DNA of 53,158 nucleotides from a virus (Duplodnaviria; Caudoviricetes): the IMG/VR virus record IMGVR_UViG_3300020183_000104, positions 1 through 53,158 of that record, one strand, 5' to 3'. The position numbers were made by a program, and so were the translations under genes. Under the pieces are notes generated by a model. That model worked only from the letters and a program-made list of their open reading frames with translations, was not told where the DNA came from and did no database searches. The first letter of the stretch is position 1, and each line of letters opens with the position of its first letter. This document shows, in pieces, positions 5,329 through 47,431 of this stretch.

Positions 5329-8300
5329 ATGAGTCCGCTCAAAAAATACGCTGAAGAGGTACGTAAAGCCGGACGCTACGGCGATACCATACTTGCGCAC
5401 ATTACTCCGCGCGAAGCAAGTATTTTGCAGCTTCTTGGCGGTTCAGGAAACGAGAATCCACAGACAGGATTGCCAGAATTTGTAACTGATGTGGATATTA
5501 AAGCGTATATAGACGCAGTGCTGGCAGGGGGTGGTTCGGACGCCGAGAAAGCAGCAACAATTAATGCAGCAGCAGAACAATATGGGGTCAGTAATGCGCG
5601 AATTTCGCAGGCGACGGGGTACAGCCAAGACGTAGTCGATGCATATCTTGCACTTCCACCTCCACCTCCACCTCCACCTCCACCTCCACCTCCACCTCCA
5701 CCTCCACCTCCACCTCCACCTCCACCTCCATCCCCTCTAGCATATACATATGACGATTATTATGGGGCTGTCTATACTCCCCCTTCTCCTTCACCTACTT
5801 ATACAGAAGAACTTAAACAAATCTACAATGATCTTGTAGGGCAAGGTAAAAGTCATGCAGAAATTCAAGAAATAGCAGATCAACACGGCGTAGGCAATAT
5901 TGATGCTTACCGTCCTTCAACACCACCTCCACTTCTATCAACAACAGGAGTATCTCAGACGACTTCTTCAGAAAATCCTTCATCTCCGAATGATCTTTCT
6001 ACTCCGGCTGTAAGTTTAACAGAAATTAAAGACACTTTTACAAGAGCGATAAAAAATCCTACGCAACAATATTCTGAAGGTCCTGAATTGGGTTTAGTTG
6101 GTCAAGATTTTGATATTGGTACGGTAGTTAGAGATTATGGATTAGATTCGGTTTTACAAGCAGTGAAAGGAAATTCAACGCTTGAAACTTTGGCAAAGGC
6201 GGCCTTAGGCGATGAAAAAGTAAACACCCCATTAGGGAATCTTTGGGCAAGAGATGCAAGGGCAATATTTAGTAATTTTGAAAAAGCCGGAATCAGCAAT
6301 ATTGAAAACATTCCTATCAACGAAAGAGTAGAGAATGTTGCAACTTTGCAATCGGGCCGTTCAACGTGGGGCTTTGATCTTGTTCCGCAAGAAAATGGCG
6401 GGCTTTCTGTTGAAAGCAGCGTTATTTACAAGGCGCCTTGGTATTCAGATTATGCGCCTATTTTGGCGATTGCATCAATTTTCCCTTCCCCAGTACAACC
6501 ATTTGCCATAGCAGCAAATGCTGCGATTGCAATAAAAGAAGGTGAACCGCTCCAAGCTATCGCTGCGCTTGCCCCACTGGCAGGGCTAGACACGGTAGCC
6601 ACCGTTGCTCGAGTCGCAGATGCTGTAGAGAAAGGAGATGCGCTTCAAGCTGCTGTGACACTTGCGGGTAGTAAAGTAGGTGCAGACATCGGGAATATAG
6701 AAATTTTTGATGGTGTAAATGTAAAGCAAGTGCTCCAAACGGTAAATACCGTCGATTTATTAAGCGAAGGGAAGACAGGTGCAGCATTAGTATCCGCTGG
6801 TAATGCGATGGGAAATCAAGAAATTGTTGCAGCGGGACAAACAATTCTTTTTGCAGATGCTTTAGAGTCCGGAAACCCTGCAGCTATGGTAAATGCTGCT
6901 GTGAATTTAGGAAATACGGTTCATCGAGCAGCAGGAACAGGTAATGCCCCAATTGATCGCAGTCTTGACACTCCATATACTGGCGACACGTACCAAGATA
7001 TTTTGCGTACGGCAGATGCAGCAAATATAGCCGACATTGATTCTCAACTTGGGTTCCAAATCGGTGACAGCGGTTACTCACGGGTCGCTGCGCTCTCGAC
7101 TGCCGATAAAGAAAGTCTAGACGTCAAGCAGGATTTAGGTGCTTTGGCCTTTGCTGCTGCTAAAGCCGCAGGAGCGGATGACCAGACCGCATTCGATGTG
7201 TCCAAAGCCGCGACTGTGGGTATTGTAGCGCCTAGAACGAGTATAACTTCGCTCGACACGACCTTCGATCCTGATCTCGTGGAGCTCACCGCAAAAGAAG
7301 CGGCGCAAATGGATGCCGGAGAAGCCATAGGTACTGGCGCACTAAATTCTTTAACAGCAAGTAACAATCCAACTGAAGATGAGCAGATTAGTCTTGCGCA
7401 AACGAATCAAGCGGTTGGCAGCTTGCTTAGAGACTTTTCAGCCATTGGCTCTACAATTGAGCCAACCGATCTTGCAGACAGTTTAAGACTACTTAAAGAC
7501 CCTTCTGGAAAACCTTTGCCCGAGTCGGAAGTTACAAGACTTGTTAGTACAGCAACCATGAATCGGACAGGCGTCGATATCATGATGCAGTATTCAAAGG
7601 TTAACCCAGAGTCCGGTATTGCACAGCTAGAGCGCAACACTGCCTTGGCGCAAATGGTGGCGGCGGGATTTTCCTCGGAGCGAGCCAATAACCTGCTTAA
7701 TGGTATTGATGCACAAAAGGCAATCGGATTAGAGAACAATCGCAGCATTCAATCTGCATATAGCAATTTCACATCTGGAAAAGGCACGGAAGAGCAGTTA
7801 CGAAACGCAATGACATCGGCCGGTTACGCAGATGCAGAAATCAATAATGTAGTTATGCAAGGCAGAGCAATCATTGAAGGTGGCAAACTCACTCCTGGCG
7901 AACGGGTTCAAGAACGTGCCGCGAACTTACCTGACATTCGAGCAGAAATCGCAGGTAAATCCACATTTAATGATGCTTATAGACTAGCCCGAGAAAAATT
8001 AGGTGCTGGAGCAACTTTCACTTGGCAGGGCAGGAGTTATAGTACCGCAACGGCGCAAGAACGACCTGACTTAACAGGTAGAACGACAACAGCAGGGCCT
8101 TCTACAACCGTATCTGAAGCAAACACATCACAGCAAGATACAACACCAACTGCTCAATCAGGTACATCACAGCAAGATACAACACCAACTGCTCAATCAG
8201 GGCAGACTGTGAAGGTTGCTGGCCCTGGAGGAAGAACTTTTACGGTAAAGCTCCCGCTTTCTAAGCAGGAAATTGCTGACAGGAACGCGACCGGCATGTT

Positions 8301-11241
8301 TAACACCGGTGTTAGATCGGTGTTAAATGAAATGGGAAGGAATTTATCAACGCTTGCACAAACAAATCACCAAGCCGCCATAAATTATCTGAAAAACAAC
8401 CCAGATAGCCCTTGGACGCAAAGCGTAAGCACAGCTTACGAAGCGGCGGGTAACACGATGCGCGACCTTGTGGGTGGTGGCGTGCTGGCCCTAGGTGATA
8501 AGCCTCTTGCCTTTAACATCATCGAAGGTGGTGAAGACCTTATTAAGCTAGGTCAGTCAATAGGTACCGGGCCGCAAGATACCGCAAATTGGGAAGAAAC
8601 AACACGACTTGTGCAAGCTACAACGAATCCTTTTGCAAAAGCCGGTATTGTCGCAGGGCGCATCTTAGACGGAAACAGCGGTTTAGCGCGTCAAGTAGAA
8701 GTTGAACTGCGTCAGGAATGGCCGGGGATTTTCTTTGGCGGTGGCACCGTAAGGGGTGCGCTCGTAGCAGGCGGGTTGATTGATGTAGGCGAAACTGGAG
8801 GTAGCGGAACAATTGAAGGCTACCAAAAAGCTATCGATGAAGGAAAAACCCATGAGCAAGCTTTGGCCGAAGGTCGTACAAGGGGTTTGGCCCAAGGTGC
8901 AACAGAACTTGTAGTTCAGGCTACGCTTGGAAAAATTACTGATGCTGCGCTCGGGCGAACAACTTCTTTTGGAGGGAGAGCCACCACGCGAGTTGGTAAA
9001 GAAACCGGTGAAGAGGCGCTTCAAGAGGGTTTAGGGTCAGTTGCTGGCGATGTTGCAACCGGACGAGCGGTTGACGCAAACACAGCTTTGACCAACGCGG
9101 TTTTAGGCGGATACACAGGAAAAGGTGGCGCTCTTACAACAACGCCTATATCAACGGCTCAAGATATTTCGGAAAGCTCACGCCCCCCAATTGGCTCAGA
9201 TCCCGAAGCGGTTAGCCGTTCGCTCAACACGATTCAAACGATTTATGGGGATTCAAAAGCTCAACAAGTCGTTAACACACTCACGTCATCTCCTGACTTA
9301 GCGGCTTCTGGGCAGCAAATCGTAACTAGCCTTTCAAATGTACTGGGCAATGACACCGCTTCACAAGTATCAAACAACTTAGTTGCGAATTTTGGACTGA
9401 GCAGCGCTTCAAGTGCTTTGCAGGACCAAGACATTAGCCTTGAAAACTTATCAACTGTCGTTGGAGAAACCAAGTCAGGCGATGACATCACACTTGGTGA
9501 TGCACTTGGCGCTGCGATTACGGGCAATGGCGAGCAAGTTTCTCCCTCAACGGTGGTAGGCACAAACGCCGACGGAACGAACTTCACGCTAGGTGATCTG
9601 ACAACTACCGTAAAGTCTTCAATAACTGCGCGACCAGAAAGAACCCTTGGTGACGACTTAACTGCAACAGATCTTGGCGGTCAAACAGAAAGAACCCTTG
9701 GTGACGACTTAACTGCAACAGATCTTGGCAGTCAAACAGAAAGAACCCTTGGTGACGGTTCAACCGCAACAGTTCTTGGCGGTCGACCAGAAAGAACCTT
9801 TGGTGACGGTTCAACCGCAACAAATATAGGTGTAAATACAGGCGCTACAACAGGGGCAACTGTTGGAGCGACCACAAATGTTAGTGCTGACACCAAGTCT
9901 GGGGTAGTAACTGGTACTGATACCAAGTCTGGGGTAGTAGCAGACACTGGAGTGAAGATCGGGGCCGGTGTTCAAGTAAATCCAGCGACCGGAGTGACAA
10001 CTGACACCAAAATCGACGCGAACACCGGGGCATCGACTACGCTGATTACGAATCCGAATACCGGAACAAAAAACACGGTCGTTCTAAACGACAGCACTGG
10101 AGTGAACAGCAGCACGGTAGTCGAGAGCAAGACTGGGGTGATTACAGACACTACTACAGACACCAATAATGGGACAACCAGCTCAGTGTCCACGGATCTG
10201 AAAACCGGTGCGGTCACAACCACCACTTCAGACAAGAATCTTGGAACTGTAACTCGAGTTACCGAAACTGTTGACGGGACCTCGACTACGACTAAGGACA
10301 CGACATCGAATGTGACGACCAATGTCACTATAAACAATAACACGAACACAACCACCGAAATTCGCGTAAACACCGACACGGGGAAAGTGGTGGTGACCGA
10401 GGTGGTTACAGGGTCGGGCGAAGTAGTAAGGACCGAAACCAAAACGGTGCAAGACCTCACCCCAAAAGAGATCGAGAAGATCGAGGTTAAAGACCCTGAG
10501 CCCGTCACCGCAGAAACCGTGCAGACTGCGCAAAAGTCGACGACCAAGTCCACTTCCTTTCGCGCGGCAGCGCCTACTAGGGGTGGCGGGATGCTTATGA
10601 GCGCTGCACCTGCGGTGACGTCCGAGATTGAGATGCCCGAAGCGGTGTGGCTAGGTGGAAGATTCCGCACCGACCTACCCTCGATCGCGGCGATGTTCCC
10701 GTTTCTTTTCCCTTCCCAAGAGCAGCAGGACACGGCGGCGGTATCCGCGCTGCGCCGCGCTTCAGGTGTCGAACCTCAAGTACCCAAGATGAGAGATATG
10801 GACTATTATGCATACGGTAAAGAACCTCAAGTACCCAAGAAGGGTGATATGGACTATTATGCATACGGTAAAGAACCATCGATCGATAGCATGCTCGGAC
10901 CGTACTTGAACGGGGGATCTGTCCAAAAGTACGCCCAGGGTGGTATAATGATGCCTTCGGCGCTGCAAGCCGCAGTCGGTGGGACACCACACAAGGGTTC
11001 GCACTACGTGCAAGGTGCAGGGGGTGGGCAGGACGACCTGATCCCGGCAAGGCTCGCGGATGGTGAGTACGTGTTCGATGCGGAAATCGTAGCGGCACTG
11101 GGCGATGGGTCGAACAAAGAAGGGGCACGAAGATTAGATGCAATGCGCGAGGCGATTAGGAAACATAAGCGATCAGGGTCGATTAAAAAGATCCCACCCC
11201 CTGCTAAAAGCCCTTTAGCTTATTTTAGAGGATCGAAATAA
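5329..11241 (+). CDS. giant internal virion / ejection protein (1970 aa)
   Basis: Long ORF in the tail-ejection block; N-terminal GRYGDTILAHITPREA..NPQTGLPEF and C-terminal GGGQDDLIPARLADGEYV domains; poly-Pro and Thr-rich repeats. Confidence 0.7.
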   Translation: MSPLKKYAEEVRKAGRYGDTILAHITPREASILQLLGGSGNENPQTGLPEFVTDVDIKAYIDAVLAGGGSDAEKAATINAAAEQYGVSNARISQATGYSQDVVDAYLALPPPPPPPPPPPPPPPPPPPPPPPPPSPLAYTYDDYYGAVYTPPSPSPTYTEELKQIYNDLVGQGKSHAEIQEIADQHGVGNIDAYRPSTPPPLLSTTGVSQTTSSENPSSPNDLSTPAVSLTEIKDTFTRAIKNPTQQYSEGPELGLVGQDFDIGTVVRDYGLDSVLQAVKGNSTLETLAKAALGDEKVNTPLGNLWARDARAIFSNFEKAGISNIENIPINERVENVATLQSGRSTWGFDLVPQENGGLSVESSVIYKAPWYSDYAPILAIASIFPSPVQPFAIAANAAIAIKEGEPLQAIAALAPLAGLDTVATVARVADAVEKGDALQAAVTLAGSKVGADIGNIEIFDGVNVKQVLQTVNTVDLLSEGKTGAALVSAGNAMGNQEIVAAGQTILFADALESGNPAAMVNAAVNLGNTVHRAAGTGNAPIDRSLDTPYTGDTYQDILRTADAANIADIDSQLGFQIGDSGYSRVAALSTADKESLDVKQDLGALAFAAAKAAGADDQTAFDVSKAATVGIVAPRTSITSLDTTFDPDLVELTAKEAAQMDAGEAIGTGALNSLTASNNPTEDEQISLAQTNQAVGSLLRDFSAIGSTIEPTDLADSLRLLKDPSGKPLPESEVTRLVSTATMNRTGVDIMMQYSKVNPESGIAQLERNTALAQMVAAGFSSERANNLLNGIDAQKAIGLENNRSIQSAYSNFTSGKGTEEQLRNAMTSAGYADAEINNVVMQGRAIIEGGKLTPGERVQERAANLPDIRAEIAGKSTFNDAYRLAREKLGAGATFTWQGRSYSTATAQERPDLTGRTTTAGPSTTVSEANTSQQDTTPTAQSGTSQQDTTPTAQSGQTVKVAGPGGRTFTVKLPLSKQEIADRNATGMFNTGVRSVLNEMGRNLSTLAQTNHQAAINYLKNNPDSPWTQSVSTAYEAAGNTMRDLVGGGVLALGDKPLAFNIIEGGEDLIKLGQSIGTGPQDTANWEETTRLVQATTNPFAKAGIVAGRILDGNSGLARQVEVELRQEWPGIFFGGGTVRGALVAGGLIDVGETGGSGTIEGYQKAIDEGKTHEQALAEGRTRGLAQGATELVVQATLGKITDAALGRTTSFGGRATTRVGKETGEEALQEGLGSVAGDVATGRAVDANTALTNAVLGGYTGKGGALTTTPISTAQDISESSRPPIGSDPEAVSRSLNTIQTIYGDSKAQQVVNTLTSSPDLAASGQQIVTSLSNVLGNDTASQVSNNLVANFGLSSASSALQDQDISLENLSTVVGETKSGDDITLGDALGAAITGNGEQVSPSTVVGTNADGTNFTLGDLTTTVKSSITARPERTLGDDLTATDLGGQTERTLGDDLTATDLGSQTERTLGDGSTATVLGGRPERTFGDGSTATNIGVNTGATTGATVGATTNVSADTKSGVVTGTDTKSGVVADTGVKIGAGVQVNPATGVTTDTKIDANTGASTTLITNPNTGTKNTVVLNDSTGVNSSTVVESKTGVITDTTTDTNNGTTSSVSTDLKTGAVTTTTSDKNLGTVTRVTETVDGTSTTTKDTTSNVTTNVTINNNTNTTTEIRVNTDTGKVVVTEVVTGSGEVVRTETKTVQDLTPKEIEKIEVKDPEPVTAETVQTAQKSTTKSTSFRAAAPTRGGGMLMSAAPAVTSEIEMPEAVWLGGRFRTDLPSIAAMFPFLFPSQEQQDTAAVSALRRASGVEPQVPKMRDMDYYAYGKEPQVPKKGDMDYYAYGKEPSIDSMLGPYLNGGSVQKYAQGGIMMPSALQAAVGGTPHKGSHYVQGAGGGQDDLIPARLADGEYVFDAEIVAALGDGSNKEGARRLDAMREAIRKHKRSGSIKKIPPPAKSPLAYFRGSK
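5656..5730 (+). repeat. perfect (CCACCT)12.5 microsatellite encoding 25 consecutive prolines
   Basis: Read directly from the sequence. Confidence 0.97.
8125..8201 (+). repeat. 39-bp tandem duplication (TSQQDTTPTAQSG x2)
   Basis: ACATCACAGCAAGATACAACACCAACTGCTCAATCAGG at 8125 and 8164. Confidence 0.95.
9635..9822 (+). repeat. 51-bp tandem repeat x4 (ERTLGDDLTATDLGGQT-like)
   Basis: CAGAAAGAACC units start at 9635, 9686, 9737 and 9788. Confidence 0.95.
10771..10877 (+). repeat. 51-bp tandem duplication (EPQVPKxxDMDYYAYGK x2)
   Basis: GAACCTCAAGTACCCAAGA...GACTATTATGCATACGGTAAA at 10771 and 10822. Confidence 0.95.
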
Positions 11242-15930: not shown

Positions 15931-16077
15931 CGAGCTACGTTAATAGCCACTGGGGGTTCGAGCGCCTCCGAGAGGCTCTCCTTGCGGTTCTTGTTTTGCA
16001 CACCCGCATGAACCTTGCCCTGGCGATGACTCATGTGGCCCGTGGAGCAGGGTTGCCGTCTGGAACCCCTCAAGACC

Positions 16078-16343
16078 GTTCCGTTGTTCCACTGTGGTGG
16101 AACAGAGATGGAACAGAGTAGGAACAGCCTACTAGCTCTGAGGCTCCGTCGGACGGGCGTTCTGAGGCAGTGGTATTCATGTTCCTGTTCCACTGTTCCA
16201 TCTGATATATATACATATTCAAGTTCGAAACACGAATAATATACGTATATATGCATGGAACAATGGAACAATTGCCGAGAGGCCTTACGTGACGAGGGTT
16301 CTGGCTGTTCCACCTGTGTTCCATCATAATGGAACGGTGGAAC
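16078..16343. repeat. GTTCCA/TGGAAC box array with AT-rich core, copy A (inverted relative to 37307-37569); candidate replication origin
   Basis: About 14 GTTCC/GGAAC boxes in three dyad clusters; AT-rich core 16205-16252; its reverse complement aligns with copy B. Confidence 0.85.
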
Positions 16344-16365
16344 AAGGTCGGAGCAATGCTAAGAC

Positions 16366-16394
16366 TTGCGCTCCGGGGAGAGATGTATTATAAT
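16366..16394 (+). promoter_or_regulatory. sigma70 promoter for the replication operon
   Basis: TTGCGC-17 bp-TATAAT; ATAGAGGA element at 16431-38 before the primase ATG. Confidence 0.6.
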
Positions 16395-16421
16395 TATACC
16401 AGCCCACCGAGGTGGTGTCAA
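16393..16421 (-). promoter_or_regulatory. consensus sigma70 promoter on the minus strand, firing into repeat copy A
   Basis: Minus strand reads TTGACA-17 bp-TATAAT with extended -10 TG (plus strand ATTATA 16393-98, TGTCAA 16416-21). Confidence 0.8.
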
Positions 16422-16447
16422 TAGTAATAGATAGAGGAACATAAAGG

Positions 16448-18001
16448 ATGGAAGGGTTAGTGAACGACTTCGCCGATTTATTCTCGGGGAACCTGCGCTC
16501 TTACGGGCGGTGGGATCCGGTCTCCGGGAACATGTCGACGGTAAAAGGGGAGGTCTCGAACGACCAGTACCTGGAACACCTGGAGGGTGGAATCGGGTTA
16601 GGGATCGTTCCTGTCTCGGACGGTGGTACCTGCAAGTTCGGGGCGATCGATGTGGACAAGCACGAGTCGCCGGAGGATATTGATTTCAAGGCGTTGCAAG
16701 CCAAGATCAACGAGTACCGGCTTCCGCTGGTGATGTGCCGGACCAAACGCGGGGGTGCACACCTATACCTTTTTGGCGACGAATACCTCCCGGCCAAGCA
16801 GGTGCGACGGGTGCTCGGATCGTGGCGGGATGTACTGGGGATTAAGCACAAGACCGAGATCTTTCCGAAGCAGGACTCGCTCGTAACTTCGAGTGGCGAG
16901 AAGGCGCTTGGTAACTGGATTAACCTTTGCTACTTCGACGCTGAGCAGACGCTCAGGTACGGATTCGACGATGATTGCAACAAGCTCTCGTTTGATCTTT
17001 TCCTTCAATATGCGCAAAGCAAGCGCGTCACCGTCGAGCAACTCGCCGAGCTTACCCTTCGCGAGCACCTGGAGGCACCACCCTGCATCCAAAAGATGAT
17101 TCACTCCGGCGTCGAGTCCGGTGCTCGGAATGAGGCGCTGTACAACGTCACCGTGTACCTGAAGAGGGCGAGGCCCGATAACTTTTTCGACGACGCGGTA
17201 GCGCTTAACGGTACGATGTTCGATAAACCGCTCGGGAACGCGGAAGCGAAAAAGGTCATTCGTTCCGCCTCACGGCGCGACTACCTGTATCGGTGTGCCG
17301 AGGAGCCCTGCAAGTCGCTTTGCGATCGGAAGGTGTGTGTAACCCGCGAGTTCGGAATCTCGATGGATGAGAAAAAAGTACTCGACGCCCACGACGCGCT
17401 ACCCCAGTTCTCGGAGCTGATCGAATACCTGTCGGACCCGCCTCGGTGGGGTATACACGTCAACGGGCAGTTGATCTCGAACATCCCGACCGTGGTGCTG
17501 AGGGACCCGAGCCTGATGGGTACGCTCATCTTCGAGCGACTCAAGATCAACATCCCGAAGATCACCCTCGATAATTGGCGCTCCCGGGTGTTGGATCCGC
17601 TGGTACCGAATATCCGGACGATCGAGGTGCCGAAGGAGGCGTCGGCGTCAGGGATCGTGCAAGCGAAGTTCGCCGAGTTCGTGCAGAAGGCCGATCTGTC
17701 CAAGGACGGGAAGGACACCAGTGATCGTAAAGCGCTGCTGCGTAACATCCCGATCGTGCAGGTCATCGACGGGACGCGTTGCGTAGTGTTCCGGGGGACC
17801 GCCTTCTCTGAGTACTTGAAGCGGAATAAAGCCGAGGTTCAGACCGGCATGGATCTGTGGACCACGCTGCGGCGCGATTGCAACGCCTCACACGATAAAA
17901 TCCGCGTGCCGGGTGGTAAGACCCTGAACGTCTGGTACGCTCCCATCACCGAGGAATATGAGGTCAAGGTCGATGAGCCTGAATTTACAACCGAGTTCTA
18001 A
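16448..18001 (+). CDS. archaeo-eukaryotic-type primase-polymerase (PrimPol) with PriCT-like domain
   Basis: GAIDVD (DxD), RTKRGGAHLY (His motif), GNWINL, PPC and GARNEALY; Cys cluster. Confidence 0.8.
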   Translation: MEGLVNDFADLFSGNLRSYGRWDPVSGNMSTVKGEVSNDQYLEHLEGGIGLGIVPVSDGGTCKFGAIDVDKHESPEDIDFKALQAKINEYRLPLVMCRTKRGGAHLYLFGDEYLPAKQVRRVLGSWRDVLGIKHKTEIFPKQDSLVTSSGEKALGNWINLCYFDAEQTLRYGFDDDCNKLSFDLFLQYAQSKRVTVEQLAELTLREHLEAPPCIQKMIHSGVESGARNEALYNVTVYLKRARPDNFFDDAVALNGTMFDKPLGNAEAKKVIRSASRRDYLYRCAEEPCKSLCDRKVCVTREFGISMDEKKVLDAHDALPQFSELIEYLSDPPRWGIHVNGQLISNIPTVVLRDPSLMGTLIFERLKINIPKITLDNWRSRVLDPLVPNIRTIEVPKEASASGIVQAKFAEFVQKADLSKDGKDTSDRKALLRNIPIVQVIDGTRCVVFRGTAFSEYLKRNKAEVQTGMDLWTTLRRDCNASHDKIRVPGGKTLNVWYAPITEEYEVKVDEPEFTTEF

Positions 18002-21347: not shown

Positions 21348-22768
21348 TGCACGTCCGGGCCATTTACGGTCCTCCTGGCACCGGTAAGACCACGGAGTTA
21401 CTGCGGTTAGTGCAGTACACACGCGAGACCGGTGTCCAGGCCGAGCAGATAGCGTTTCTATCGTTCACCCGTGCGGCGGCGAGTGAAGCGTTATCCAGGC
21501 TCGGTCTGAAGCGGTCCGATAACGTATCGACGATTCACGCGATGGCGTTTCGCTCTCTGAGGTTGAAGCAAGCTCAGGTGGTGGACCATATCAAGCTGCG
21601 TGAGTTCTCTAAAGTCACCGGCATTCCGATCGTCGGCAAGTCCCCCGAGGACGATGAAGAGCGCACCGACGGGGATGCTTACTTGGATCTTCTTAACTAT
21701 GCACGGAACACTTTTAGCCACCCTTCCGAAGTCTACGAGACTTCGGATCGTCCGGGCACTCGTGCGGAATACGAGATGTTCGTCTCTGCGTACGCGAACT
21801 GGAAGAAGACCTACGGTTATTACGACTTCACCGATATGCTCGAACGAGCCAGTTCGGGAGCTGTTCGACAAGGGATTGAGGTCCTTTTTGTCGACGAGGC
21901 GCAAGACCTTTCACCTCTGCAGTGGCGTGTTATTGAGCGGCTCACAAAACGCGCTCATCAAGTTTTTGTCGCGGGGGATGATGACCAAGCAATATATGCT
22001 TGGTCGGGCGCTGATCCACACGGTATGGCAAAATTCTGTTCGAAGCACAAGGGTGATAGCGTTGTGCTCTCGCTCTCGCATCGACTTCCTGTTGCAGTGC
22101 ACCAAAAGTCCCAGTCCCTCATTCGCCGAGTCCTTTTCCGCGTGGATAAGAAGTTCGATTCTTGTGGACGCTCAGGCACAGTACGGAACCATGGGTCAAT
22201 GGCGTCGGTTGATGTTGAACACGGCGAGGATACGCTGGTTTTGGCACGGACGCATTCAATCCTGCGCGAGGCTGAAAACGCGCTCATCGATCGCCGCATC
22301 CCCTATGTTCGCGAATCGGGCCGTCCGGGAATGTTCCAGAATCGGTATGCCGTTGGCCTTCGATCCTACAACAAGATTCGTGACGGAAAACGTTTATCAG
22401 ACTCTGATCGATCGGCTCTCTTTACAGTGGGATCAAGGGAGACAAAGGCAGCGCTTGAAAGAAACGATTACATGGCAGTCGTGGCATTCCCCTTCTACAT
22501 TGCGATCGAAATGCCACACCGCGTTATCGATTACTACCAGGAGGTCGACGTCGATGTGGAGCCGACTATACGACTCTCCACTATTCACGCAGCTAAGGGC
22601 CATGAGGCGAATCGCGTCATCGTACTTACGAATATGACGAACCGCGTGGCGGATAATGCACACACTAAGCCTGATGATGAGATCCGGGTGTGGTACGTGG
22701 CGTTGACACGCAGCAAAGACGTATTGGATATTGTGGAGGGCTACAATGGCTATAACCTAGATAATTGA
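21347..22768 (+). CDS. UvrD/Rep-family SF1 helicase
   Basis: GPPGTGKT, FTRAAA, TIHA, VDEAQD, GDDDQAIY, STIHAAKGHE and YVALTRSK motifs. Confidence 0.92.
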   Translation: MHVRAIYGPPGTGKTTELLRLVQYTRETGVQAEQIAFLSFTRAAASEALSRLGLKRSDNVSTIHAMAFRSLRLKQAQVVDHIKLREFSKVTGIPIVGKSPEDDEERTDGDAYLDLLNYARNTFSHPSEVYETSDRPGTRAEYEMFVSAYANWKKTYGYYDFTDMLERASSGAVRQGIEVLFVDEAQDLSPLQWRVIERLTKRAHQVFVAGDDDQAIYAWSGADPHGMAKFCSKHKGDSVVLSLSHRLPVAVHQKSQSLIRRVLFRVDKKFDSCGRSGTVRNHGSMASVDVEHGEDTLVLARTHSILREAENALIDRRIPYVRESGRPGMFQNRYAVGLRSYNKIRDGKRLSDSDRSALFTVGSRETKAALERNDYMAVVAFPFYIAIEMPHRVIDYYQEVDVDVEPTIRLSTIHAAKGHEANRVIVLTNMTNRVADNAHTKPDDEIRVWYVALTRSKDVLDIVEGYNGYNLDN

Positions 22769-22793
22769 CAGATAACCCCACGAGTGATATAAT
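22765..22793 (+). promoter_or_regulatory. consensus sigma70 promoter driving the SSB-dpoZ-purZ operon
   Basis: TTGACA-17-TATAAT with TG extension; CACGAGTG in spacer; ATAGAGGA RBS at 22809. Confidence 0.85.
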
Positions 22794-22820: not shown

Positions 22821-23096
22821 ATGAAACAGTACGACAACACCAATTCCGGTCTGTTGATGCGGAATGAAAATCGGACCACAGACTCGCATCCCGAATTTAC
22901 TGGATCGCTTAACGTTGAAGGTCGCGACTTCTGGGTCTCGGCCTGGGTCAACATTGGCAAGCCCGGATCTAAGATCGAGGGGAAGCGCTACTTCTCGATT
23001 AAGGTCACGCCGAAGGACGCTCCGAACCGCGCGAACACGGGTCGCAAGAACGCGGCGACGAATTACGACGATATAGACGACGATATCCCATTTTGA
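22821..23096 (+). CDS. small ssDNA-binding-like protein
   Basis: 91 aa; HPEFTGSLNVEG..WVSAW and SSB-type C-terminus DDIDDDIPF. Confidence 0.7.
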   Translation: MKQYDNTNSGLLMRNENRTTDSHPEFTGSLNVEGRDFWVSAWVNIGKPGSKIEGKRYFSIKVTPKDAPNRANTGRKNAATNYDDIDDDIPF

Positions 23097-24934
23097 TGAA
23101 CATCCCACGCATTGACGGTCAAATCCCCTACTTGGTGGTGGACACTGAAACCACCGGCCTCAATTGGTTGGAGGATGAGGTATTTGGCGTCTCGATCGCA
23201 CTTCCTGACGGCACCGCCGGGTACTGGGATGTACGGGCGACGCCAAAGATCCTGGATTGGCTAAGCGATCTTATCGCCGAGGATCGGGTTGGGGTGTGGG
23301 TTGGGCATAATTTCAAGTTCGACCTGCACTTCCTGCGTGAAGCTCGGGTGAGCATTCCGACCGACCGGATCGATTGCACGATGATTCGGGCGGCGCTGAT
23401 CAATGAGCATGAACCGACCTACGGGCTGGATTTCTTGGCGCGGAAGTACGTTGGGGCGCAGAAGGACACGGAGATTTACGATGAACTGGCGAAGATATTT
23501 GGTGGCCGTGCTACACGCAACGCGCAGATGCCGAACATTTCACGCGCTCCTCAAGAGATCGTGGCGCGGTATGCAATCCTGGACGCGGTAGTCACGCGGA
23601 AGCTTTACCTGTGGCAGCGCGACGAGATCGAGAAGCAGAACCTGCATCGAGTCCATAGTCTCGAGCGTGAACTAATGCCCGTCATTATCGATATGGAGAC
23701 CGAGGGTGTGCGGGTCGACGTCGATATGGCCGAGAGAGCCTCCCGACACCTCACGAAGCGCATCGACGATATGCAGCGGGACTTGAATACGGAGGCCGGG
23801 TTCGAGATCAACCCGAACCCCTCCGGATCGATCGCGCAGCTATTCAAGCCGACCCTAGGGGAGGACAATGAGTGGTACCTGATCGACGGGACCCGGGCAG
23901 GGAAGACCGATGGCGGGAAGGCATCGATCGACGCTGATTGCTTGCGTCGTATGAAGCATCCGGCGGCGAAGATGATCCTTGATCTCCGCAAAATGCTCAA
24001 GACCCGCGACACTTTCATTCAGGGCCATATCCTTGGTCACCAGCAGGACGGGGTGATACACTGTAACTACAACCAGACCAAGAACGATGCGGAGGCCGGG
24101 ACCGGCACCGGGCGGCTTTCGATCACAAATCCGGCGCTGCAGCAGATTCCGTCGCGGGACGTAGCGATCAAATCGCTCGTGCGCCCGATCTTCAAGGCGG
24201 ACCACGGCGCGAAATGGTTGGGGCTCGATTGGTCGCAGTTCGAATTCCGGGTAGCGAATCACTACGGGCAGGTGCCGTCGATCCTGGAGGCCTACCGGGT
24301 AAATCCGAATCTGGACTTTCACCAGTTGGTGTCCGATATGACCGGCATCCCCCGGAACGCGCAGTACGCCGGGGGTCCATCCTCGAAGGCGATAAATCTC
24401 GGGCTCGCTTTCAATATGGGTTCCGGGCGGCTGGCCCAAGAATGCGGACTTCCCTACACCGAGGAGACGGGGCCGAATGGGAACGCGTACCTTAAGGCGG
24501 GACCCGAGGCAATGGAGCTTTTCGAGCGGTACCATGCCGCGAACCCCGGGATGCGGAACATGGCAAACAAGGCGAGTTCGATCGCCAAAGAGCGCGGGTT
24601 CGTGCATTCGATCTTGGGGCGGCATATTCGATTCCCGGGTGGGCAATTCGTGCACAAGGCGTCGGGGCTGATTTACCAAGCGACGTCGGCCGACTGCATG
24701 AAAATGAAGCTCATTGAGCTTCACCGCTATTTGACCGGCCACGGGGTGGGGCGGCTGCTGCTGTCCGTGCATGATGAGGTCGGAATCTCGCTTGATAAGG
24801 ATTCGCTGAATCACGCCGCGAAGATCGCGCAGATTTACACTACATTTGATGGTATCGATTGCCCGATCAAGCTCCGGGTACCGATTACCTGTGATTGGGG
24901 CTTGGGTGAAGACTGGTACGAGGCAAAAGGATGA
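23093..24934 (+). CDS. dpoZ: family A DNA polymerase, DpoZ-type
   Basis: Exo DTETTG; motifs DWSQFEFR, KAINLGLAFNMG, ASGLIYQATSAD and LSVHDE deviate from PolI in the way described for DpoZ; directly upstream of purZ. Confidence 0.85.
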   Translation: MMNIPRIDGQIPYLVVDTETTGLNWLEDEVFGVSIALPDGTAGYWDVRATPKILDWLSDLIAEDRVGVWVGHNFKFDLHFLREARVSIPTDRIDCTMIRAALINEHEPTYGLDFLARKYVGAQKDTEIYDELAKIFGGRATRNAQMPNISRAPQEIVARYAILDAVVTRKLYLWQRDEIEKQNLHRVHSLERELMPVIIDMETEGVRVDVDMAERASRHLTKRIDDMQRDLNTEAGFEINPNPSGSIAQLFKPTLGEDNEWYLIDGTRAGKTDGGKASIDADCLRRMKHPAAKMILDLRKMLKTRDTFIQGHILGHQQDGVIHCNYNQTKNDAEAGTGTGRLSITNPALQQIPSRDVAIKSLVRPIFKADHGAKWLGLDWSQFEFRVANHYGQVPSILEAYRVNPNLDFHQLVSDMTGIPRNAQYAGGPSSKAINLGLAFNMGSGRLAQECGLPYTEETGPNGNAYLKAGPEAMELFERYHAANPGMRNMANKASSIAKERGFVHSILGRHIRFPGGQFVHKASGLIYQATSADCMKMKLIELHRYLTGHGVGRLLLSVHDEVGISLDKDSLNHAAKIAQIYTTFDGIDCPIKLRVPITCDWGLGEDWYEAKG

Positions 24935-26034
24935 AGAAAATCGATTTGGTTATTGACCTTCAATTCGGCAGCACGGGTAAGGGGTTGATCGTCGGTACTC
25001 TTTCTACCTACGAGGGGTACGACACGGTGATTACCGCATGGGCACCAAACGCGGGGCATACGTTCATTGATGCCCGGGGGCGAAAGTTCGTACATACGCA
25101 TCTGGCCAACGGCATCGTGGCCCCCTACCTTCGTAGGGTACTGTTGGGTCCAGGCTCGGTCATCAATCCGGCGCAGCTCCTGGCCGAGATCGAGCAGTGC
25201 AAGGATATAATTGAAGAGAAGCGAATCAAGATCATGATTCACCCGCATGCAGCGGTGGTGACTGATGAACACTTGGAGGAGGAGGCGCAAAGCATGACGG
25301 CGATCGGCTCGACCAAGAAGGGCGTGGGCGCGGCGATGATCTCTCGAATCCGTCGGCAGCCAAACAAACCGGCCGTCGCGAAGGACTTCTTTGAACTCAT
25401 GGATCTGGTGTGCACCACCGAGCAGTACACGCGAGCGGTACACGATTCGACTCATATTCTAATCGAGGGTGCACAGGGCGTTGGGCTCTCTATGTACCAC
25501 GGTTTTTACCCCTACACGACCTCGCGGGACGTCAGCACCTTTCAAATCCTGGCCGATTGTGGAATTCCGGCGACGATCTTCAATCAGGCTTCCTGTCGTG
25601 TGGTCGGCACCGCGCGGACCTACCCGATCCGGGTAGCAAATCGATTCGATTCGGACGGGCGGCAGGTGGGCTTCAGTGGGCCGGGACACCTGGACCAGAC
25701 CGAGATCTCGTTCGAGCAGATCGGTCAGCCGACCGAACTCACCACGGTGACCAAGCTTCCCAGGCGCATTTTTACATTCAGTCGGCAGCAGATCCTTGGG
25801 GCGATCGACCTTTCTGGCGCGAGCGAGGTGTTTTTGAATTTCGTGAATTACGTGCAGGACGAGCAGTACCTGCTATCGATCGTGAACGCGATCGAGGAGG
25901 CCGGGGCTAGAATTAAATGGTTGGGTCTAGGTCCAGATATCCTCTCGGTGGTGCTGCTGTCCGAGGGTGAGAACTACACGGCGCGGCGCAAAGAGATCGT
26001 GTCCAAGTGGCAGCGTTACCAATTTCGTAATTAA
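24931..26034 (+). CDS. purZ: N6-succino-2-amino-2'-deoxyadenylate synthase PurZ
   Basis: PurA fold with QFGSTGKG (Ser in place of the catalytic Asp of PurA GDEGKG), PNAGHT, EGAQG, YPYTTSR, TTVTKLPRR and FLNFVNY (in place of TKLD). Confidence 0.95.
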   Translation: MKKIDLVIDLQFGSTGKGLIVGTLSTYEGYDTVITAWAPNAGHTFIDARGRKFVHTHLANGIVAPYLRRVLLGPGSVINPAQLLAEIEQCKDIIEEKRIKIMIHPHAAVVTDEHLEEEAQSMTAIGSTKKGVGAAMISRIRRQPNKPAVAKDFFELMDLVCTTEQYTRAVHDSTHILIEGAQGVGLSMYHGFYPYTTSRDVSTFQILADCGIPATIFNQASCRVVGTARTYPIRVANRFDSDGRQVGFSGPGHLDQTEISFEQIGQPTELTTVTKLPRRIFTFSRQQILGAIDLSGASEVFLNFVNYVQDEQYLLSIVNAIEEAGARIKWLGLGPDILSVVLLSEGENYTARRKEIVSKWQRYQFRN

Positions 26035-26049
26035 GTAGGAGCTTAAAAG

Positions 26050-26568
26050 ATGGCGAGTGAATTCATAATGAACTCGTTGCTTCACACCAACGAGAAAAAC
26101 CCCCTTCCTTGGTCTATCCACCCGGATACCGACTTGGTGGTGGTGGATGCGAACGGTGCGGCGGTCGCGAACTTTGAGGTAAGGCACCAACACAAGGGTG
26201 TACTCGCGAATTGCGAGAAGAATGCAGACTTGGCTGTGCGATCCGTTAACGCATTTGCCAAGCGCGGAGGGGCAGATATCCGGCGGCTGCAGCAGGTGGT
26301 CACCACTTGGGCGGACGAAGTGTTCCCGCATAGAAAGACACCCGACATTTTGCTTAAGCTCTACGAGGAGGTGGGTGAGTACGCCCGTGATCCGAAGGCG
26401 GCGGCAGAGTTCGCGGATATAATGATTTTGTTGCTCGATCTAGCGGCGATCAATGGCATCGATATTCAAAGGGCGGTTACCGAAAAAATGGCGTTGAACG
26501 TTGGACGTAAGTGGATCGTGGACTCTCAAACCCGTATTATGAGGCATACATATGATGAAAACCCGTAA
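26050..26568 (+). CDS. mazZ: MazG-like dNTP pyrophosphohydrolase (MazZ/DUF550-type) with N-terminal extension
   Basis: WADEVFP..KLYEEVGE..EFADIMILLLD..KMALN.GRKW; immediately after purZ. Confidence 0.8.
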   Translation: MASEFIMNSLLHTNEKNPLPWSIHPDTDLVVVDANGAAVANFEVRHQHKGVLANCEKNADLAVRSVNAFAKRGGADIRRLQQVVTTWADEVFPHRKTPDILLKLYEEVGEYARDPKAAAEFADIMILLLDLAAINGIDIQRAVTEKMALNVGRKWIVDSQTRIMRHTYDENP

Positions 26569-26767
26569 TCAAGTATTCGAGATCTGGTACACGCGTCGGT
26601 TTGGCGAGTTACTAGGCGAACAGGACTCGCACACCAGAGAGTTCGTGCGGGAGATATGGAATCAGGCGCTCAGTCGTGCCGTGGATCACTTCGAGTTCGA
26701 GAATTTCGAACCTCTTGAAAGTGGACAGATCATCGACCGGCTTGAGCGTCTTAAAGCGATAAGGTAA
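26552..26767 (+). CDS. hypothetical protein within the Z cluster
   Basis: 71 aa ORF overlapping mazZ and ending just before datZ. Confidence 0.6.
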   Translation: MMKTRNQVFEIWYTRRFGELLGEQDSHTREFVREIWNQALSRAVDHFEFENFEPLESGQIIDRLERLKAIR

Positions 26768-26772
26768 TCAGG

Positions 26773-27321
26773 ATGAGTTTTTCTCTAGCTGAACAGCTCC
26801 GTGCTTCGCACGTTAAACGGTGGCAGATCGTCAACGTTTCGCGCACCCAGAATCTCGCGGAGCATCATTTTAACGTCACCCTCATTGTCGGTCAACTCGC
26901 TCGACACTGCAGGGACAAGCGGCTGCTCGACCCCCAGTACGCGTTGAGGCTCATGTACTGGTCGCTCTCGCACGATATGGTCGAGGTTCGTACTGGGGAC
27001 ACCCCGACGCCCTACAAGCGGGTGTTAGAGCAGGTGGGTGGGCCGGACATTATCGACAAGTCCGAGGAGGTCGTGGATCCCGAGTACATTGCCGACAAGC
27101 GTCGGATCGCTGGGACGCCCATCGAAATGTATGTGGAGATCGCGGATTTGATCGAGGCGATTTGGTTCCTGAGTGACCATGGAATTGGCAAGAGCGCAGT
27201 CGCCGTCCGGGCGGGGCTCGAAGCGTCGCTCGACCGATGTGTGCAGAAGTGGCGTGGGGTTTTTAGGGAATTGGATATTGATTTCGCGGTGTGCCGCGTA
27301 AGTGAGGAGATCGGAATATGA
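26773..27321 (+). CDS. datZ: HD-domain dATP triphosphohydrolase DatZ
   Basis: VKRW..QNLAEH..SHD..E..TGDTPTP..IADLIEA HD motifs; purZ neighbourhood. Confidence 0.88.
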   Translation: MSFSLAEQLRASHVKRWQIVNVSRTQNLAEHHFNVTLIVGQLARHCRDKRLLDPQYALRLMYWSLSHDMVEVRTGDTPTPYKRVLEQVGGPDIIDKSEEVVDPEYIADKRRIAGTPIEMYVEIADLIEAIWFLSDHGIGKSAVAVRAGLEASLDRCVQKWRGVFRELDIDFAVCRVSEEIGI

Positions 27322-27518
27322 AATGCGTTAAATGTGGCGGTATCACCCAGGTCACGACCGTGTACCAAAACGCGAATGGTGGAACGCGTCGCCGCAGGGC
27401 ATGCACGGTCTGTCAATTCCGATTCACCACGCGCGAGTATCCGTCGATCACGGATCCGAAGCTCAAAGAGTACTATTTGGAGACAGATGTTGACACAGAT
27501 ACCCCGCCCGTGATATAA
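27318..27518 (+). CDS. NrdR-like N-terminal zinc-ribbon protein
   Basis: MKCVKCG..TRRRRACTVCQFRFTTRE; no ATP-cone domain. Confidence 0.75.
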   Translation: MKCVKCGGITQVTTVYQNANGGTRRRRACTVCQFRFTTREYPSITDPKLKEYYLETDVDTDTPPVI

Positions 27519-27519
27519 T
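27490..27519 (+). promoter_or_regulatory. sigma70 promoter for the HDAC-family gene
   Basis: TTGACA-18-TATAAT with TG extension; ATAGAGGA RBS at 27536. Confidence 0.75.
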
Positions 27520-27548: not shown

Positions 27549-28379
27549 ATGACCCCGATTTTTTACAATCTCCACCAGTCCTGCGACTTCGACTTTCCGT
27601 CTTATCGCAAGATCCCGATGTTCGTGCGACAGGCCGCGCGATCACTGGTTACCGATTTCGAGCCGCTTAAAGACGTCGATTTGATCACCGCGCATTCGGT
27701 TGAGTACGTGGTAAACGTGTTCTTGGGGAAGATTTCTAACGGATTCAGAAACACCGACTCGACGCTCAACGAGACACTCAGGTACACGAACGCGAACTTC
27801 TTGGCTGCAACTCGGCACGTGAGCGAGAAGAAAACGGAGGTCGCATGCTCAGCGACCCAGGGCTTCCACCACGCAGGGTTCGATTTCGGAGGAGGGTACT
27901 GCACGTTCAACGGGTTAATGATCGCGGCGCTCAGCGATGGAGTGATCAAACCGGCGCTTATTCTCGACGGTGACGGCCACTACGGGGATGGGACGGACGA
28001 CATCATCGAGGCGCTGGCTATGCGCGACCGAGTGCGGCACGTGACGAATCTTGATATGCAATCATTCGTCTCGCGCTACAAGCCGAACGCTTGTAACTGG
28101 GAAGTGTGGGCCTCCGGCTTGATTTCGTCGTCGAAGCCTAGTATAATAATGTACCAAGCCGGCGCTGACGCATGGATCGAGGATCCTTATGGTGCGGGGT
28201 ACCTCACTCTTGAGGGTCTGCGGAATCGTGACCTCGGGATCTTTCGCGCAGCCAGGAAGTCCAAGATCCCTCTCGTGTGGAATCTCGCCGGTGGATACTG
28301 CAAAGATGTTCAGCGCACGGTAGACGTGCATATTCAGACACTCAAAGCCAGCGACGAGGTGTACTATGGCGGGACCTAG
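27549..28379 (+). CDS. histone deacetylase family (Zn-dependent amidohydrolase)
   Basis: GFHHAG..GGGYCTFNG, LDGDGHYGDGT, YQAGADAW..DP and LAGGY motifs. Confidence 0.9.
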   Translation: MTPIFYNLHQSCDFDFPSYRKIPMFVRQAARSLVTDFEPLKDVDLITAHSVEYVVNVFLGKISNGFRNTDSTLNETLRYTNANFLAATRHVSEKKTEVACSATQGFHHAGFDFGGGYCTFNGLMIAALSDGVIKPALILDGDGHYGDGTDDIIEALAMRDRVRHVTNLDMQSFVSRYKPNACNWEVWASGLISSSKPSIIMYQAGADAWIEDPYGAGYLTLEGLRNRDLGIFRAARKSKIPLVWNLAGGYCKDVQRTVDVHIQTLKASDEVYYGGT

Positions 28380-30283: not shown

Positions 30284-30568
30284 ATGAATGTTTATCTCAA
30301 TGCAATACTCGAGGAGCGCGGCTCCGAATATGGCGATTTCACCGCACAGGCGCAGATCTCCCAGGCGCTGCAGGACATAGCTAGGGCCGGGTGCAGCTAC
30401 ACCTCGACGGAATCCTACCAGAGGGAGGCACTCGCAATGATTTTACACAAAATCTCTAGGATCGTTAATGGAAACACACGGAACGTTGACTCATGGGCGG
30501 ATATCGCCGGATATGCCACACTCGTTGCAAACCGACTACAAAAGGGAGGGGGGATTGACAGATTGTAG
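30284..30568 (+). CDS. conserved phage hypothetical protein (DUF6378-like)
   Basis: ILEERGSEYGDF..QREALAMILHKISRIVNG..DSWADIAGYATL. Confidence 0.7.
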   Translation: MNVYLNAILEERGSEYGDFTAQAQISQALQDIARAGCSYTSTESYQREALAMILHKISRIVNGNTRNVDSWADIAGYATLVANRLQKGGGIDRL

Positions 30569-46516: not shown

Positions 46517-47431
46517 ATGGCAGCCCCGATGCGCAGTACCGACTTTCGGTCGATAGTCGAGCCTATCCTTAACGAATGCTTCGACGGAATCTACGAGCAA
46601 CGCAAGGACGAGTGGTCGAGAGTCTTCCGCCAGGAACAAGGCATTCCTCGTAATTACCACGAAGAACCAGTCCTGTACGGATTTGGTGCCGCACCCCAAC
46701 TGCCTGATGGCACTCCGGTGACTTATCAGCAGGGTGGCGTGCTCTTCCTGAAGCGCTATGTGTACAACGTTTATGGCTTGGCCTTTGCGTTGACCAAAGT
46801 GCTTGTAGAAGACGGTGACCACATCCGGATTGGTCAGGTTTACGCCAAGCACCTCGCACAGTCTCTAATCGAGACCAAAGAGACGCTTTCGGCGAACGTG
46901 CTTAACCGTGCTTTCAACAGCTCCTACCCGGGTGGTGATGGCGTCCAGTTGAACTCGGCTTCACATCCGATCGTCAACGGCACCTTCAGCAACCTGTTGT
47001 CTACTGCTGCGAACCTTTCGCAGACCTCGCTTGAGCAGATGCTCATTCAGGTCCGTCAGGCCGTGGACAACAACGGCAAGAAGATCCGTCTTGTGCCTCG
47101 CCAATTGGTGGTCGCATCCGGTAATGTCTTCCAGGCCGAAGTGTTGCTTAAGTCTGTGCTCCGTGCAGGTACCGCGAACAACGACATCAACCCGGTCAAG
47201 TCGATTGGCTTGCTCGACGAGGGTGCCGCAGTTCTGTCGCGTCTTACCTCCGCTACGGCTTGGTGGGTGCAGACCGATGCTCCGGAAGGTATGAAACTGT
47301 TGATGCGTCGTGCACTTGAGAAGACGATGGAAGGCGATTTCGAAACTGACTCGATGCGCTACAAGGCGACCGAGCGTTACGACGTCGGCTTCACCGATCC
47401 TCGAGCCATGTACGGCACTCCAGGCGTCTAA
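46517..47431 (+). CDS. major capsid protein
   Basis: 304 aa; LAFALT..LVED, GGDGVQL.S.SHP, L..TSLEQ and YKATERY..GFTDPR..YG.PG. Confidence 0.9.
   Translation: MAAPMRSTDFRSIVEPILNECFDGIYEQRKDEWSRVFRQEQGIPRNYHEEPVLYGFGAAPQLPDGTPVTYQQGGVLFLKRYVYNVYGLAFALTKVLVEDGDHIRIGQVYAKHLAQSLIETKETLSANVLNRAFNSSYPGGDGVQLNSASHPIVNGTFSNLLSTAANLSQTSLEQMLIQVRQAVDNNGKKIRLVPRQLVVASGNVFQAEVLLKSVLRAGTANNDINPVKSIGLLDEGAAVLSRLTSATAWWVQTDAPEGMKLLMRRALEKTMEGDFETDSMRYKATERYDVGFTDPRAMYGTPGV

Follow-up and report, generated by a model that had tools for sequence, protein, structure and literature searches.

The IMG/VR virus record IMGVR_UViG_3300020183_000104 (Caudoviricetes) comprises 53,158 bases, all of which were analysed here and are referred to as the window. 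The record is linear and about 95% complete as estimated by CheckV. All convincing genes of the window lie on the + strand, and no tRNA genes were found in it. It contains a compact set of genes with predicted functions in the synthesis of DNA in which adenine is replaced by 2-aminoadenine (Z). These are DpoZ (23093–24934, +, 613 residues), a DNA polymerase of family A that also bears a 3'-5' exonuclease domain; PurZ (24931–26034, +, 367 residues), a predicted ATP-type N6-succino-2-amino-2'-deoxyadenylate synthase; MazZ-1 (26050–26568, +, 172 residues), a predicted (d)GTP pyrophosphohydrolase of the DUF550 kind; a small protein called x71 here (26552–26767, +, 71 residues); and DatZ (26773–27321, +, 182 residues), a predicted HD-domain dATP triphosphohydrolase. 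They are preceded by a protein resembling single-stranded DNA-binding proteins (SSB-like; 22821–23096, +, 91 residues) and followed by an NrdR-type zinc ribbon without an ATP-cone (27318–27518, +, 66 residues). A preliminary description had read the five open reading frames (ORFs) at 23093–27321 as a complete Z-genome cluster, dpoZ-purZ-mazZ-x-datZ. All five were recovered at these coordinates on the + strand, and curated family models, matches to solved structures, a phylogenetic tree and active-site residues all agree with that reading. The functional names of the matching PHROG families agree with it as well.

The assignment of PurZ is central. The window protein scores 328.3 bits on the PurZ model NF038379 (cut-off 300), while the equivalog models for PurA give 60–151 bits against cut-offs of 368–700. 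A search of all PDB sequences returned the PurZ of phiVC8 (1e-81) and S-2L (8e-74), then 7vf6 (3e-25) and finally E. coli PurA (4e-14). The entry 7vf6 is named ‘PurA-like adenylosuccinate synthetase’ in the PDB, and we take it to be a structure of PurZ0. The motifs GSTGKG (residues 13–18), TKLPRR (274–279) and NFVN (303–306), quoted in the preliminary description, are all present, and the last is followed by Y307. For the functional residues a list was drawn from bioRxiv 10.1101/2025.10.22.683976 and PMC8342488. According to the former, F12, S14 and T262 form the pocket for dGMP's 2-amino group, and F295 and Y298 bind the ATP base. All five are kept, as F12, S14, T271 (phiVC8 T262), F304 (phiVC8 F295) and Y307 (phiVC8 Y298). 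The position of the guanine-binding Asp, which is Asp in the PurZ0 of Wayne (D326) and Ghobes (D302) and in PurA of the E. coli type (D334), is N306 in the window; in a seven-sequence alignment all four PurZ, the window's included, carry Asn or Gln there. The same alignment separates PurZ from PurZ0 and PurA by GSTGKG and NFVN-Y. The catalytic Asp13 of PurA, conserved in 99% of the PurA clade according to PMC12884076, is Ser in the window.

A quick IQ-TREE phylogeny (LG+G4, 72 rows, rooted on two PurA) carries support from the Shimodaira–Hasegawa-like approximate likelihood ratio test (SH-aLRT) only. Besides the window protein and the two PurA it includes five PurZ (phiVC8, SH-Ab 15497, S-2L, ZP6, OH), three PurZ0-type proteins (Wayne, Ghobes, Hiyaa) and 61 of the 66 IMG/VR relatives described below, five with fewer than 320 aligned residues having been left out. 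The PurA split is supported at 100, the PurZ0 clade at 97 and the PurZ clade at 98. The window protein sits deep within the PurZ clade, in a group of nine rows with support 100, apart from both PurZ0 and PurA. Several long-branch warnings were raised, for example for OH, S-2L and L067, none of which concerns the window's own group. The model score, the tree and the residues F304, N306 and Y307 together point to an ATP-using PurZ rather than a PurA or PurZ0, and the residues agree with ATP use by the window enzyme. PurZ is said to use ATP in bioRxiv 10.1101/2025.10.22.683976 and in the introduction of PMC12884076; a single sentence of section 24 in the latter has it the other way round, with ATP for PurZ0 and GTP for PurZ, and so conflicts with its introduction as well as with the residues of the window enzyme.

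The polymerase gene next to purZ belongs to the DpoZ group. It scores 795.2 bits on the phiVC8-like model NF038380 (cut-off 500) and 33 bits on the Wayne-like model NF038381 (cut-off 350), and in the PDB it matches phiVC8 DpoZ (7pbk) at 5e-140 and the Klenow fragment at 1e-40. PMC8599892 describes a set of atypical residues and clade-specific insertions in DpoZ. Four of the five residues are kept, namely R440, L455, F459 and G548, the last three being L436, F440 and G525 in the window, and all three insertions align, although the third lacks a few residues. The translation also shows the exonuclease motifs DTE, NFKFD and YAILD. The earlier claim that a DpoZ-like PolA flanks PurZ is thus borne out by the family score, the best structural match and the residues kept, and the enzyme would be an aminoadenine-selective polymerase.

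MazZ lies between purZ and datZ, matching the positional rule given in PMC8342488. Its domain at residues ~75–166 scores 29.4 bits on PF04447 (gathering cut-off 23), and its sole sequence match in the PDB is S-2L MazZ (7ody, 2e-12). When compared with the list of pocket and metal residues of S-2L MazZ in PMC8342488, 17 of 21 are identical and one is a conservative change; the remaining differences fall on I16, N20 and A92, which the same paper calls unique to S-2L. The metal ligands E34, E35, E38, E50 and D53, the guanine determinants I56 and D60, and R83 are identical (8/8) and invariant in an alignment of 30 sequences. An AlphaFold2 model built from this alignment, with a mean predicted local distance difference test (pLDDT) score of 85.4, shows four helices (residues 55–150) and two strands (154–157 and 164–167) within residues 55–167. 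It superimposes on 7ody in Foldseek with a template modelling (TM) score of 0.80–0.87 by target length and a root-mean-square deviation of ~1.9 Å. As modelled, the protein has the all-alpha MazG-HisE fold, to which two beta strands are added at the C-terminus. The family score, the structural match and the predicted fold uphold the presence of a MazG-like enzyme beside PurZ. Residues ~1–54 form an additional beta-rich domain, strongly conserved in 29 of the 30 aligned sequences, for which no recognisable relative came out of Pfam at E up to 10, a feature search of the Atlas or Foldseek. MazZ-1 proteins often bear N-terminal fusions according to PMC8342488.

DatZ matches phrog_7076, ‘dATP triphosphohydrolase’, at 3e-25, and its best match in the PDB is S-2L DatZ (6zpa, 2e-14), with YfbR next at 2e-7. 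Twelve of the 13 key residues listed in PMC8065100 are kept, including W20, I22, P79 and four metal ligands. The ligands H34, H66, D67 and D119, which correspond to H31, H67, D68 and D125 of the window, are present in all 49 distinct DatZ sequences of the IMG/VR relatives. W20 (exclusion of the 2'-OH) and I22 (exclusion of the 2-amino group) are W17 and I19 in the window; among the 49 sequences these positions are Trp in 48 and Ile in 45. Of the triphosphate contacts R19, K81 and K116, which are conserved among close homologues but may not be a mark of the family, the first two are found, as R16 and K82. These matches speak for the HD dATPase that had been proposed as a member of the cluster.

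The arrangement is not peculiar to this record. In IMG/VR, 75 stretches were matched by a scan, and a relative is encoded in 69 of them; these represent 66 distinct loci with PurZ 39–97% identical to that of the window. Fifty-five of the 66 carry dpoZ, purZ, mazZ and datZ in the same order and on the same strand, and 62 carry the last three; in most of the 11 incomplete loci a contig end adjoins the missing gene. The SSB-like gene was found in 48 loci, the zinc ribbon in 49 and a deacetylase-like gene beyond it in 47, the latter two only in loci with PurZ at least 55% identical. The ratio of non-synonymous to synonymous substitution rates (dN/dS) against two close relatives is 0.02–0.2 for all seven genes from the SSB-like protein to the zinc ribbon. 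Among 50,697 phage records 205 matched the window PurZ, all of them below 60% identity and none above 48%, and a megablast of the 4.2-kb cluster DNA against the same records gave no near-identical match. A metagenomic search through 1.84 billion cluster representatives returned 401 PurZ-like proteins at E up to 1e-30; among the matches listed there are at least 150 clusters at 50% identity with E up to 1.6e-44. PurZ-like genes are common in metagenomes. A separate scan with PurZ of 185,579 species genomes, as a possible clue to a prophage or host, matched 94 stretches. Only one of them passed, with 30% identity over residues 243–361 inside a 916-residue ORF that is not a PurA, and it was dropped; in the tree its place is taken by the genuine PurA of the same genome.

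The seven genes appear to be organised as one unit. A promoter in full agreement with the sigma-70 consensus (TTGACA, 17 nt, TATAAT, and a TG ahead of the -10 element) lies at 22765–22793 (+) and would mark its start. The next perfect promoter at 27490–27519 (+), inside the 3' end of the zinc-ribbon gene and ahead of the deacetylase-like gene, would mark its end and the beginning of another unit. Between them, neighbouring genes either overlap or leave a gap of no more than 15 nt. Perfect matches to TTGACA-N16-18-TATAAT occur six times in the window, compared to 0.02 expected from 100 shuffles, at positions 22765, 27490, 30555, 31218 and 34591 (+) and 16421 (-), five of them with TG before the -10 element. 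The same AGAGGA leader follows the promoters at 22765 and 27490, and it lies 6 nt before the ATG at 22821. The DpoZ reading frame opens with TTG at 23093; the in-frame ATG at 23096, which overlaps the stop of the upstream gene, is the likelier start. Since a consensus sigma-70 promoter stands ahead of the unit, host RNA polymerase would read it, and we infer that the SSB-like gene, dpoZ, purZ, mazZ, x71, datZ and the zinc ribbon form one host-transcribed unit. More generally, host RNA polymerase appears to read the replication region in short units.

Taken together, these observations make it very probable that the region is a functional Z-DNA module of a lytic, podophage-like virus. The proposed pathway follows the published one. 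MazZ would convert dGTP to dGMP, and PurZ, with ATP or dATP as cosubstrate, would join dGMP to aspartate and so form N6-succino-2-amino-dAMP. PurB and kinases of the host would carry this product on to dZTP, DatZ would destroy dATP, and DpoZ, with its proofreading exonuclease, would copy the genome with Z opposite T. No homologue of PurB or of a nucleotide kinase was found by Pfam among the 54 window proteins scanned, which fits a dependence on the host for these steps. According to PMC8342488, the datZ-mazZ-purZ triad of S-2L is sufficient for Z incorporation in E. coli, and it is from published work on the pathway such as this that we infer replacement of A by Z in the genome, and hence Z in the virion DNA.

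Some points weigh against this interpretation. The sequence cannot tell A from Z, the boundaries of the unit are based on consensus promoter matches only, and the dependence on host PurB and kinases assumes that these are compatible with the phage enzymes. Furthermore, the window and SH-Ab 15497 both have Glu at the position of DpoZ S583, the fifth atypical residue. Another point concerns DatZ, where K116, a contact of the gamma-phosphate that PMC8065100 describes as strictly conserved among close homologues, is E122. Among the 49 distinct IMG/VR sequences this position is Lys in 44, Glu in four and Thr in one, and the four with Glu are the closest relatives of the window. A change common to the window and these relatives is one fixed in a subclade and not an error, and dATP removal may be weaker or altered there. 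This charge reversal at a triphosphate contact, seen in five distinct sequences, together with a DpoZ mechanism that PMC8599892 describes as a preference for Z and not an absolute selectivity, could be taken to mean that the module is active and yet clears dATP incompletely in this subclade, leaving a mixture of A and Z in the virion DNA. We consider such partial substitution unlikely. The other 12 key residues of DatZ are intact and its dN/dS of 0.10–0.16 indicates purifying selection; in addition, S-2L PurZ can itself consume dATP (PMC8342488), and PMC12884076 cites hydrolysis of dATP, too, by MazZ/DUF550-type proteins in SH-Ab 15497.

Two further explanations fare worse. If only Pfam is consulted, the window PurZ is returned simply as PF00709, ‘Adenylosuccinate synthetase’, and one could picture an auxiliary enzyme that raises AMP amid generic nucleotide-pool neighbours in a phage with canonical DNA. 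This is scarcely credible for a protein with Ser in place of Asp13 and Asn in place of the guanine-binding Asp, which falls short of every PurA equivalog cut-off, is separated from PurA with support 100 in the tree and has DpoZ, MazZ and DatZ as linked genes in 55 of the 66 loci. The DatZ substitution might also be read as a sign of decay in a non-working remnant inherited from a Z-phage ancestor. Nothing further points that way, and with all frames open, catalytic residues intact, the low dN/dS values of all unit genes and a gene order kept across relatives with PurZ as little as 39% and as much as 97% identical, we regard it as highly improbable. A functional Z-DNA module thus remains the preferred interpretation.

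Among the closest known systems, Acinetobacter phage SH-Ab 15497 (MG674163.1) has nearly the same order of genes: a gp34-like gene, a UvrD/PcrA helicase, DpoZ, SSB, PurZ, MazZ (DUF550) and an HD phosphohydrolase (DatZ). Identities to the window are 47% for DpoZ, 45% for PurZ, 39% for the helicase, 44% for the MazZ domain and 30% for DatZ, and the positions of SSB and DpoZ are swapped. Its MazZ has 385 residues and is a DUF5664-DUF550 tandem according to PMC12884076, whereas the 172-residue window protein lacks a C-terminal extension and has an unrelated N-terminal domain of ~54 residues that differs from DUF5664. Its DatZ keeps K116. The Vibrio podophage phiVC8 (JF712866.1) has DpoZ, PurZ and DatZ 42%, 47% and 39% identical to those of the window, and its DpoZ shares the three insertions as well as L455, F459 and G548. 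It differs in having a short MazZ-2 between purZ and datZ (PMC8342488) where the window has MazZ-1, a 763-residue gene between dpoZ and purZ, Leu at position 22 and Val at 79 of DatZ in place of Ile and Pro, and a genome of 39 kb compared to 53 kb. The cyanophage S-2L (MW334946.1), a siphophage, shares with the window the order purZ-mazZ-datZ, the MazZ-1 type with identical metal ligands, I56 and D60, and W20, I22 and P79 of DatZ. It is without DpoZ and uses PrimPol (PMC8065100), its MazZ has no N-terminal domain and its DatZ has K116.

A different picture emerges for the virion genes. The virion block of the window encodes small and large terminase subunits, a portal, a Cpn10/GroES-like protein (26.8 bits, cut-off 21.1), a major capsid protein, tail-fibre-like proteins and an endolysin. 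Two proteins match the SU10 adaptor family, one at 85.6 bits and the other at 25.1 bits, below its cut-off of 27. No tail-tube, sheath or tape-measure family was matched among the 54 proteins in Pfam and PHROGs, which fits a podophage-like virion. The preliminary description had spoken of a GroES-encoding, ejection-protein-rich podophage-like lineage. The Cpn10/GroES-like gene and adaptor genes of the podophage type are there; a ‘DNA ejection protein’ family is matched by only one protein (1.4e-6). An ORF of 1970 residues (5329–11241, +), placed among putative ejection and internal virion genes, has no match in Pfam or PHROGs.

The closest virion relative is the uncultured Caudoviricetes sp. 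ctpbd312 (MW202545.1, 57 kb). Its terminase, portal, Cpn10-like, capsid, adaptor and tail genes follow the order of the window and are 46–89% identical, with the portal at 60% and the major capsid protein (window 46517–47431, +) at 89%; of the 1970-residue ORF, only the last ~60 residues resemble a protein of this genome. MW202545.1 lacks PurZ, and none of the window proteins encoded between 12293 and 38433 has a homologue in it; the genes for the primase, the SNF2 and UvrD helicases, DpoZ and the Z pathway all lie in that stretch. In place of these genes it bears ParB-like and ‘lysogenization’ annotations. The portal is also 48% identical to that of Caulobacter phage RW, for which one search, whose negative result has low weight and which did find the window's own PurZ, detected no PurZ. 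Conversely, the virion proteins of the window have no match in an 11-kb stretch of SH-Ab 15497, a siphophage whose replication and Z genes are syntenic with the window at 30–47% identity. The comparison shows the replication and Z module to be exchanged as one block among virion types that are not related. This mosaic fits the connection between Z-phage groups and phages with canonical DNA described in PMC12884076.

The unit and its surroundings also hold further genes. The SSB-like protein matches two ‘single strand DNA binding protein’ families, phrog_7364 (7e-14) and phrog_18154 (1e-13), and shares 36% identity with the SSB annotated in SH-Ab 15497. For x71, no match was found in Pfam (also at E up to 10), PHROGs or NCBIfam, Foldseek gave nothing of use, and the Atlas returned unnamed viral clusters only; it is a real gene, as it occurs in 40 of the 66 related loci with dN/dS of 0.02–0.03 against close relatives. 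The zinc ribbon scores 31.0 bits on PF22811 (cut-off 27.2), has only NrdR chains as PDB matches below E 0.01, and shows the pattern CxxC...CxxC with RRRR-x-C-x2-C-x-F-R-F-T-T. At its start it shares 4 nt with the end of datZ, and its dN/dS is ~0.05. A tblastn search of the 50,697 phage records found no match to it. NrdR boxes, searched within the phage genome with up to three mismatches to a consensus, gave no matches, host boxes being outside the scope of that search. The protein may interfere with host control of ribonucleotide reductase.

The first gene past the unit encodes a deacetylase-like protein (27549–28379, +, 276 residues) that matches PF00850 at 2e-21. The presumed zinc ligands (Asp-x-His and Asp), a His-His pair and the tyrosine of a GGY motif all align with a solved bacterial homologue. 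It would be a catalytically intact, phage-specific amidohydrolase of the histone-deacetylase family. It has no match in PHROGs and only three weak matches among the 50,697 phage records, and at least 120 metagenomic clusters are 45–89% identical to it, on contigs of up to 58 kb. In this lineage the Z module could be larger than the textbook set, with at least one of the zinc ribbon, x71, the N-terminal domain of MazZ and the deacetylase-like gene being an undescribed part of Z-DNA metabolism or its control, although we think this rather doubtful. One way this might work is that the zinc ribbon occupies the NrdR boxes of the host and thereby uncouples ribonucleotide reductase expression from a dATP pool collapsed by DatZ.

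Another protein that was considered is the DUF6378 protein (30284–30568, +, 94 residues), whose homologue p22 of phiVC8, located near its Z cluster, is 37.5% identical. The idea that it is a stand-alone, DUF5664-like dATP/dGTP hydrolase was rejected: a 41-sequence profile compared to SH-Ab MazZ by hhalign reached a probability of 2.7% and aligned to the DUF550 part, and DUF5664 did not appear in Pfam even when matches to E 10 were admitted. Homologues occur in 290 phage records, and many of these belong to groups not represented among the 205 that hold PurZ. A Z-specific role was rejected because of this wider spread, and the protein is probably a general replication-module gene. Further upstream, in a gap of 517 bp before the primase gene, positions 16050–16450 hold ten of the 23 genomic TGGAACA heptamers. 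They occur in both orientations and flank an AT-rich core (16207–16252), and a perfect - strand promoter lies at 16421–16393. This region looks like an iteron-type replication origin or control region.

The pathway has already been well described and its understanding is unchanged by these findings. What they add to the preliminary description are a unit of seven genes bounded by promoters, a new domain at the N-terminus of MazZ, the subclade with the K116E change in DatZ, the zinc ribbon and deacetylase-like neighbours, and a capsid common to a relative without PurZ. The K116E subclade, the zinc ribbon and the deacetylase-like gene are cheap targets for the bench. The suggestion that the range of Z-DNA phages is extended stands in part: the lineage is new, with no PurZ above 48% identity in the phage records, while Podoviridae with Z-DNA have been described before (PMC8599892). 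Known Z-DNA phages thereby gain an uncultured, podophage-like lineage of ~53–59 kb, with at least 55 IMG/VR loci that carry the four Z genes in order. The window and MW202545.1, a near-matched pair, would offer a natural comparison of how Z-DNA and A-DNA are packaged, and of how capsids and the machinery of ejection deal with the stiffer Z-DNA.

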